Positions 1,052 to 1,183 of a DNA stretch of 64,000 nucleotides are shown in pieces. The DNA is taken from NCBI RefSeq assembly GCF_054482525.1, contig NZ_CM137006.1; one strand, 5' to 3'. The notes below the pieces were generated by a model. That model ran no database searches and was not told where the DNA came from. It worked only from the letters and a program-made list of their open reading frames with translations. The first letter of the stretch is position 1. Every line of letters begins with the position of its first letter. A program made the position numbers and the translations under genes.

Positions 1052-1183
1052 CTTAGTACAAAAAAGCAGCGTTACGTGATCTTTCCCTGGTCCCTGTCCC
1101 GGATTGTAGTACCGGTGCCAGTTGTAGTGCAGTTCGGATTCGTCGTCATACTGCTAGCCCGGATGGCGGAGCAGTTGCTCTAG
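1052..1183 (-). pseudogene. Short remnant of an Rhs core 3' end, next to the H-rpt element
   Basis: Minus-strand translation gives ...LLRHPG*QYDDESELHYNWHRYYNPGQGPGKDH..., which parallels the Rhs core end [26 protein letters not shown] seen in both rhs copies here. It contains an in-frame TAG and is bounded by stops. Coordinates approximate. Confidence 0.4.

Follow-up and report, generated by a model that had tools for sequence, protein, structure and literature searches.

The 94 nt between positions 1183 and 1090 (minus strand) are best explained as the 5' leader of an orphan rhs toxin cassette that was displaced and has lost its body, and the piece that is left, here called the stub, would now be inert DNA. 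We give this reading as a whole a probability of roughly 80%. The window is the complete stretch of DNA that was analysed (64,000 nt), and its coordinates equal those of strain 1190 (L001) minus 8101. An earlier note had described positions 1052-1183 as a decayed rhs core fragment abutting an H-repeat (H-rpt) transposase. Taken alone the stub carries little weight: as a dead remnant it marks the end of the rhs toxin array. It shows the loss of one spare Tox-WTIP toxin/immunity cassette from this strain and provides a clean example of the trimming of polymorphic-toxin arrays by an insertion sequence (IS).

In strain 1190 the region lies distally in an rhs array linked to VgrG, at the end that adjoins yafV, ivy and fadE. 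Genomes with this locus show the order VgrG, rhs, immunity, rhs, immunity, fragment, H-rpt, yafV, and the stub does mark the end of the rhs array as had been proposed. All elements of the array in the window are on the minus strand: VgrG, an rhs pseudogene with an immunity-like ORF, a second rhs pseudogene (5855..1907), an ORF of 82 aa (1873..1625), an ORF of 132 aa (1624..1226), the stub and the ISAs1-family transposase ORF. Between 900 and 1700 the window is 100% identical to many complete E. coli genomes. The main rhs gene has its C-terminal toxin tip at 1625..2160, interrupted by a TGA at 1909..1907. This codon is TGG in L035 (...RRDTWI[W]IIDTTDEEEQCMMNK...), where the frame reads through as ...RRDTWIWIIDTTDEEEQCMMNKAIDL..., so that the 82-aa ORF represents the tail of the toxin in the same frame and no separate gene. 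PGAP flags the main rhs gene as 'frameshifted; internal stop'. With the TGA and the upstream frameshift reported by PGAP it is a pseudogene, and its immunity gene is intact. The start of the 132-aa ORF (1226..1624, minus strand) abuts the toxin stop, which makes it the immunity-like ORF of the preceding toxin tip; it is kept together with the toxin at both the yafV and the RhsE loci at 96-100% identity. A search of Pfam and NCBIfam returned no family for it. By eye, the N-terminus of this protein shows a hydrophobic segment up to a Cys (MEMLGNILVIIISMIIISC...), possibly a lipoprotein signal. An AT-rich spacer (1184..1225, minus strand; GC 0.40), which does not align to the core, leads from the immunity stop to the leader. 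Its last codon is a TAG directly ahead of LEQ.

The stub comprises 31 codons plus one base with the peptide LEQLLRHPG-stop-QYDDESELHYNWHRYYNPGQG and is cut one base after the codons for ...YYNPGQG. The translation of the minus strand from 1225 to 1040 is ...SE-stop-LEQLLRHPG-stop-QYDDESELHYNWHRYYNPGQGPGKDHVTLLFCTK-stop, and the frame of the peptide quoted earlier had been read correctly. We compared positions 1000-1260 with the whole window using blastn. Positions 1091-1162 aligned with one rhs core end (6970-7041) at 78% identity (E=2.7e-11) and the stub aligned with a second one (2169-2236) at 72% (E=3e-4); local alignments with the two cores gave 60/79 and 54/78 identities, respectively. 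For the profile searches the in-frame TAG at 1154..1156 (minus strand), a site at which rhs cores carry CAG (Gln), was read as Q. The 31-aa peptide then matched positions 1199-1229 of the 1261 positions of NCBIfam RHS_core (NF041261) with E=3e-8. The score for TIGR03696 was 31.7 bits and thus slightly below the cutoff of 32.5, and Pfam gave no match for the 31-aa peptide, which is too short. The stub is also a GC island with a GC content of 0.57, compared to 0.31 for the IS end, 0.40 for the spacer and 0.34 for the immunity ORF. On blastn, NCBIfam and the match to an intact copy (see below) we annotate 1090..1183 as the leader of an orphan rhs module, and judged by these alignments it is homologous to the C-terminal end of the Rhs core.

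The stub runs straight into the terminal repeat of an H-rpt, an ISAs1-family IS. The window holds the left 1089 bp of this element (1..1089, minus strand, delimited by homology to the K-12 H-rpts), which extends past the window start; its full length is 1291 bp in L001, L002, L003 and K-12, and the right end lies outside the window. The first 315 codons of the transposase ORF (1..945, minus strand) matched NCBIfam transpos_ISAs1 (NF033564) with E=3e-111 and 371.6 bits against a cutoff of 70. Close copies are named 'ISAs1-like element ISEc1' by PGAP, and the L001 copy is annotated as an ISAs1 family transposase. Homology to K-12 H-rptB (yhhI; 95%) covers 1..1090 of the window and homology to H-rptE (ydcC; 94%) covers 1..1089, with no homology beyond in either case. 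The sequence common to the window and the K-12 H-rpts starts with CAGGGAAAGATCA. Both this homology limit and the match to the right end define the left terminal inverted repeat CAGGGAAAGATCACG (1075..1089, minus strand): the reverse-complemented right repeat CAGGGCAAGATTACG agrees with it at 13 of the 15 bp. One base past the GGA (Gly) codon of the stub, the sequence becomes the first base of this left inverted repeat. Aligning the region to core ends and H-rpt termini, as had been suggested, places the first base of the H-rpt at 1089 and the junction between stub and element at 1090/1089. The earlier span must accordingly be divided: 1090-1183 is rhs-like, whereas the 38 nt from 1052 to 1089 are the left repeat and 5' end of the H-rpt, so that the boundary is not at 1052 and the peptide tail PGKDHVTLLFCTK-stop ('PGKDHV...') comes from IS DNA and not from rhs. 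The region is thus not wholly within the ISAs1 element, as the remainder outside these 38 nt is rhs-like at the nucleotide level. The other elements of the earlier description were borne out, namely a fragment of an rhs core end (both window cores and RHS_core) that lies between the immunity-like gene (1226..1624) and the transposase ORF (from 945) and abuts the H-rpt. The arrangement resembles H-rptB at RhsB and H-rptE at RhsE of K-12 in length, terminal repeats, distal position in the array and orientation relative to rhs. However, the left ends of the K-12 H-rpts abut non-rhs DNA, whereas the left end in the window cuts an orphan rhs leader, and the window H-rpt is the 'CGTAACGCTGCT' sequence variant while K-12 carries the 'TCAGAAGTTCAC' variant.

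Other strains continue from the leader into a complete orphan toxin/immunity module, which agrees with the past insertion or truncation that had been proposed. L008 (Ec-042-T0, RhsE locus adjoining pptA) has an uninterrupted leader with the same TAG. Behind it come a toxin of ~130 aa, a small ORF with a frameshift (the immunity gene) and, after that, H-rpt sequences. The orphan protein scored 85.5 bits with TIGR03696 and matched Pfam Tox-WTIP with E=2.6e-13. Leader and spacer of the window are identical to this intact copy at 134 of 136 nt, and the stub is 100% identical in L001, L005, L007 and L035. As the intact orphan carries the same TAG, this stop predates the truncation, and with only 2/136 differences between stub and intact leader the truncation is recent relative to the divergence of the leader.

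To describe the distribution we used a survey set of 5426 complete E. coli genomes with positions 1091-1300 as the query for the stub. The leader and the adjoining 3' end of the immunity gene were found in 553 of these genomes with at least 99% identity, the orphan toxin and immunity region in 397 with at least 80% coverage, and the window-type junction between stub and H-rpt in 158. L004 has the same orphan cut by an H-rpt left end elsewhere, namely after ...DPIG, 31 aligned bases further in. Many of the leader-bearing genomes carry the PGAP label 'RHS repeat-associated core domain-containing protein' on the fragment. The closest annotated counterpart is the 108-nt pseudogene CF59_RS27635 of ST2747 (NZ_CP007393.1), which covers the equivalent of window 1076-1183 (134/136 identical) with the note 'internal stop; missing N-terminus and C-terminus'. 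ST2747 differs from the window in that the H-rpt joins 31 aligned bases further in and that the locus is RhsE/pptA and not yafV. The exact fragment is thus already annotated in RefSeq genomes and, with both orphan tips and distal H-rpts described, is of a known kind. For the annotation this means that 1076-1183 should be an rhs pseudogene fragment; PGAP does so elsewhere, but not in the strain-1190-like record.

The placement of the stub is that of an orphan tip produced by C-terminal displacement (PMC2935791), i.e. downstream of rhs and immunity gene and on the same strand: on the minus strand the rhs gene (5855..1907) and its toxin tail are followed by the 132-aa ORF (1624..1226) and the stub (1183..1090). 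Another point of likeness is that the Tox-WTIP tip is attached to a full-length rhs in L009 and unattached in other strains. In displacement orphans the 3' piece of the core continues into PxxxxDPxGL, a toxin and an immunity gene, and here this is the case only in the intact copies. The window switches to the H-rpt repeat 7 codons before the DPIGL motif, and the stub therefore ranks as the remnant of a member of the orphan-tip class and not as a member itself.

The absence of the remaining orphan can be accounted for by two steps. An H-rpt would first have transposed into the orphan leader in the same orientation as rhs, with GGACAGGGAC as its 10-bp target. Recombination with a resident co-oriented distal H-rpt would then have deleted the remaining orphan (toxin and immunity) and erased the target duplication. 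We found no target duplication around the window-type copy in L001, L005 and L035: the left flank is GGACAGGGAC, whereas the right flank is GCTTTATTAT in L001 and ACTCTCCCCG in L005. The copy was thus either rearranged after insertion or formed by a deletion. We also looked for target duplications around the K-12 H-rpt copies and found none. Perfect 10-bp duplications were encountered in two other places. Copy 2 of L035 (JNE23-011, yafV locus; 6516-7816) is flanked by GGTTTAACAA within the same toxin tip, and the empty site of this insertion is present in the window. A copy of L036 (~4805-6105) is flanked by GCCCGACATG. These two cases are natural evidence that H-rpt/ISEc1 transposes, in contrast to the genome paper PMC3032704, according to which transposition of H-rpt has not been observed. 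L035 carries three co-oriented H-rpts in one array. The flanks of its copy 1 do not match: the left one is a remnant of IS1 and the right one the end of an rhs core (...CCCTG/GGCGGTATATCATCCAGGAC), which indicates recombination between H-rpt copies. A search of the 5426 genomes for the predicted intermediate, an H-rpt right end followed by GGACAGGGAC-GATATATC..., returned no match. L008 is not the literal ancestor, as the H-rpt that follows its intact orphan is a sequence variant unlike the window copy. The window-type junction also occurs at the RhsE locus in L007, and the event may have taken place at either yafV or RhsE.

The same product would result from a single step, in which the left end of the resident distal H-rpt attacked the orphan leader and a transposase-mediated adjacent deletion removed toxin and immunity. 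This course is possible, though we consider it rather doubtful. It would fit a junction that lacks a target duplication and keeps the element down to its last base, the two nearby points at which the same orphan was cut (window and L004), and the 12:0 excess of H-rpt left ends with rhs reading toward the element (see below), as upstream-spreading deletions would give. However, simple insertions with 10-bp duplications are present in the same arrays and in the same orientation, so that insertion followed by recombination requires no unobserved activity, and the report in PMC3032704 that H-rpt transposition was not observed counts against the single step as well. We prefer the account in two steps. 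We know of no established transposition chemistry for ISAs1-family elements. A third candidate, a microhomology deletion between CAGGG strings, was rejected for the window, where both CAGGG strings are kept (CAGGGAC/CAGGGAAAG) and the terminus of the element is intact to the base. We also compared canonical core ends with H-rpt left ends: among the 40 records listed of 52 with at least 80% coverage, all have a toxin of ~380 nt between the two and none has the core end fused directly to the H-rpt.

The earlier note had called the fragment decayed. On that reading the stub would be a duplicated piece of a resident E. coli rhs core that has mutated since being cut off. The stub does have only 69-78% nucleotide identity to the cores in the window, it carries the in-frame TAG and residues that are absent in relatives (W for R, E for G), and its differences to the nearest window core, counted by eye, fall 7/3/9 on codon positions 1/2/3, i.e. 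without a strong synonymous bias. Nevertheless we regard in-situ decay as improbable. The leader of the intact orphan, TAG included, is only 2/136 nt away, and the divergence must therefore predate the truncation. Furthermore the divergence is confined to the leader and falls abruptly past it: in the directly following RYIxQDPIGL segment the orphan and the canonical core differ at only 2 of 31 nt. The ordinary rhs cores of E. coli reach only 76-79% identity to the leader, with none closer than about 79% in the 5426 genomes. In a protein search the leader peptide matched short RHS core-domain proteins of Salmonella enterica and Citrobacter portucalensis. The leader has 24-26 of 31 residues in common with these core ends compared to 20 of 31 with the resident core, among them the diagnostic residues LEQxIR, QQYDDES and YYNPGQG-RYITQ. 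Private to the leader are a stop in place of Q, an E in place of G, a W in place of R and an L in place of I. From these residues, the leader is mainly of a Salmonella/Citrobacter-like core-end lineage with a little genuine decay on top. The term decayed thus holds for these few changes, whereas most of the divergence is due to lineage and the TAG is older than the truncation. We scanned species-representative genomes with a degenerate DNA pattern for HYNWxRYYNPGQGRY and found no full-length rhs gene with this leader, so the donor lineage is inferred from the short Salmonella and Citrobacter proteins only. For dissociated and attached tips at one locus the core regions were described as always identical (Jackson et al. 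2009, PMC2935791). The identity of about 69-78% to both window cores does not place the stub in the same clade, and the leader lineage departs from that generalisation. The window further differs from the orphans of that study in that the leader alone survives and carries a stop.

A function for the stub is very improbable, whether as a recombination patch through which toxin tips are swapped or by expression of a small peptide or RNA. The C-terminal displacement model (PMC2935791), in which the core fragments on orphan tips provide the homology for tip exchange, would lend it some plausibility, as would L009 and L036, where this Tox-WTIP tip is joined to a canonical core or leader. However, nothing is left downstream of the stub that could be swapped in, and the stub is a poor substrate for tip switching, being only about 80 nt long and 69-76% identical to the resident cores. 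The changeover from core to orphan in L009 lies around RYIxQDPIGL, downstream of the leader and not within it. The stub has no start codon and two stops in frame, Rfam gave no match, and a scan for promoters and terminators within the stub found nothing convincing. Without a start codon or toxin and with an in-frame stop it has no coding function. That the rhs-like stretch is instead cargo or an extended end of the H-rpt that moves with it is hardly credible: the stretch is contiguous with the inverted repeat and the junction recurs at two chromosomal loci, but beyond the CAGGG terminus nothing is common to K-12 H-rptB, H-rptE and 70 further distinct left flanks, the 1291-bp element with its matching inverted repeats excludes the stub, and L008 has the stub sequence without an adjacent H-rpt, which rules this reading out.

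The orphan leader is part of a larger block. Window 1090-2160 (toxin tip, immunity and leader) is segmentwise 96-100% identical to L004, L007 and L008 at RhsE and to L005 and L035 at yafV, whereas the rhs cores upstream of the shared block show 87-96% and then 73-76% identity and differ by up to 27%. The block of toxin, immunity, stub and H-rpt is thus found nearly unchanged at two rhs loci on different core backgrounds. The window-type junction at RhsE in L007 implies that the block was exchanged between loci, presumably with the rhs core and the H-rpt as homology arms. The last step of the proposed history would accordingly be a swap of the module with stub and H-rpt between rhs loci by way of these arms. 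The rhs gene in the window is itself a mosaic: the N-terminal half (3601-5855) is 73-76% identical to the same-tip rhs genes of other strains, the 3' core (2161-3600) 87-96%, and tip and immunity (1090-2160) 96-100%. Two further arrangements of the tip were seen. In L009 (VTB96933v, 5875-6030) the Tox-WTIP tip of the L008 orphan is fused to a canonical full-length core, and in L036 (MB06233, 6149-6260) this tip is led by a canonical-type core fragment.

We then studied the left ends of H-rpts in a sample of 25 species-representative contigs and 120 metagenome contigs, which gave 73 distinct left flanks (L001-L153). An Rhs match within 450 nt upstream was found for 12 flanks, and rhs reads toward the element in all of them (12:0). 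The junctions are scattered from the Rhs N-terminus to the toxin, with three at the core end (window, L004 and L042, the last cut after ...DPIGLAG). The left ends in L004 and L042 and the right end of L035 copy 1 lie within about 50 nt of the core-end motif of the window. Of the 66 non-nested flanks, 12 have CAGG within their last 12 nt, compared to 0-4 (mean 1.9) in ten upstream control windows; this is a ~6-fold excess for a motif that was chosen post hoc. G at position -10 was observed in 29 of the 66 flanks. The 10-bp targets tend to end in CAGG(G), like the CAGGG terminus of the element itself, and the window, where the core end is cut behind its conserved Gln-Gly codons (CAG-GGA), would be an example of such a target bias. 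The two verified target duplications (L035 copy 2 and L036) are without CAGG. A hot spot at the core end that resembles the inverted repeat was considered and is weakened by these two duplications and by the junctions along the whole rhs gene. H-rpt may have a target or orientation bias, which we treat as a lead only. The wider proposal that H-rpt/ISEc1 is an active IS which has a target bias and hops locally, co-oriented with rhs, inside rhs arrays seems unlikely to us at present. If it were true, H-rpt would systematically prune orphan toxin cassettes and serve as a portable homology arm by which toxin/immunity modules move from one rhs locus to another, and its activity would explain the long-noted linkage of H-rpt and Rhs.

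Several minor observations concern the ends of H-rpts. In L036 a group II intron (7089-9010) interrupts the left end of an H-rpt after 15 nt (CAGGGGAAGATCACG/GTGTGCC...); it matched Rfam group-II-D1D4-2 with 92 bits and Intron_gpII with 62 bits and encodes an ltrA reverse transcriptase. Remnants of the same intron occur in L007 (3858-4000) and in L006 (BL21; 4105-4265). The L007 remnant is a fragment of the intron 5' end after a 15-nt H-rpt stub, and the others abut H-rpt left ends at three points. Outside the window, L001 has a solo H-rpt right-end remnant of ~60 nt (7785-7899) that lies ~75 bp beyond the complete H-rpt and adjoins yafV. In L035 the third H-rpt is directly followed at its right end by a similar remnant of 29 nt, and L005 and BL21 each have one H-rpt that ends at this yafV-side position. 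These remnants and single copies indicate an old resident H-rpt on the yafV side. In L080 (SKEH01002363.1) the 12-nt terminus CAGGGAAAGATC is repeated four times in tandem at an H-rpt left end, and L010 and L153 contain H-rpts nested 34 and 25 nt, respectively, inside the left end of another H-rpt. The terminus array together with the nested copies suggests that the element inserts at its own ends or next to them.
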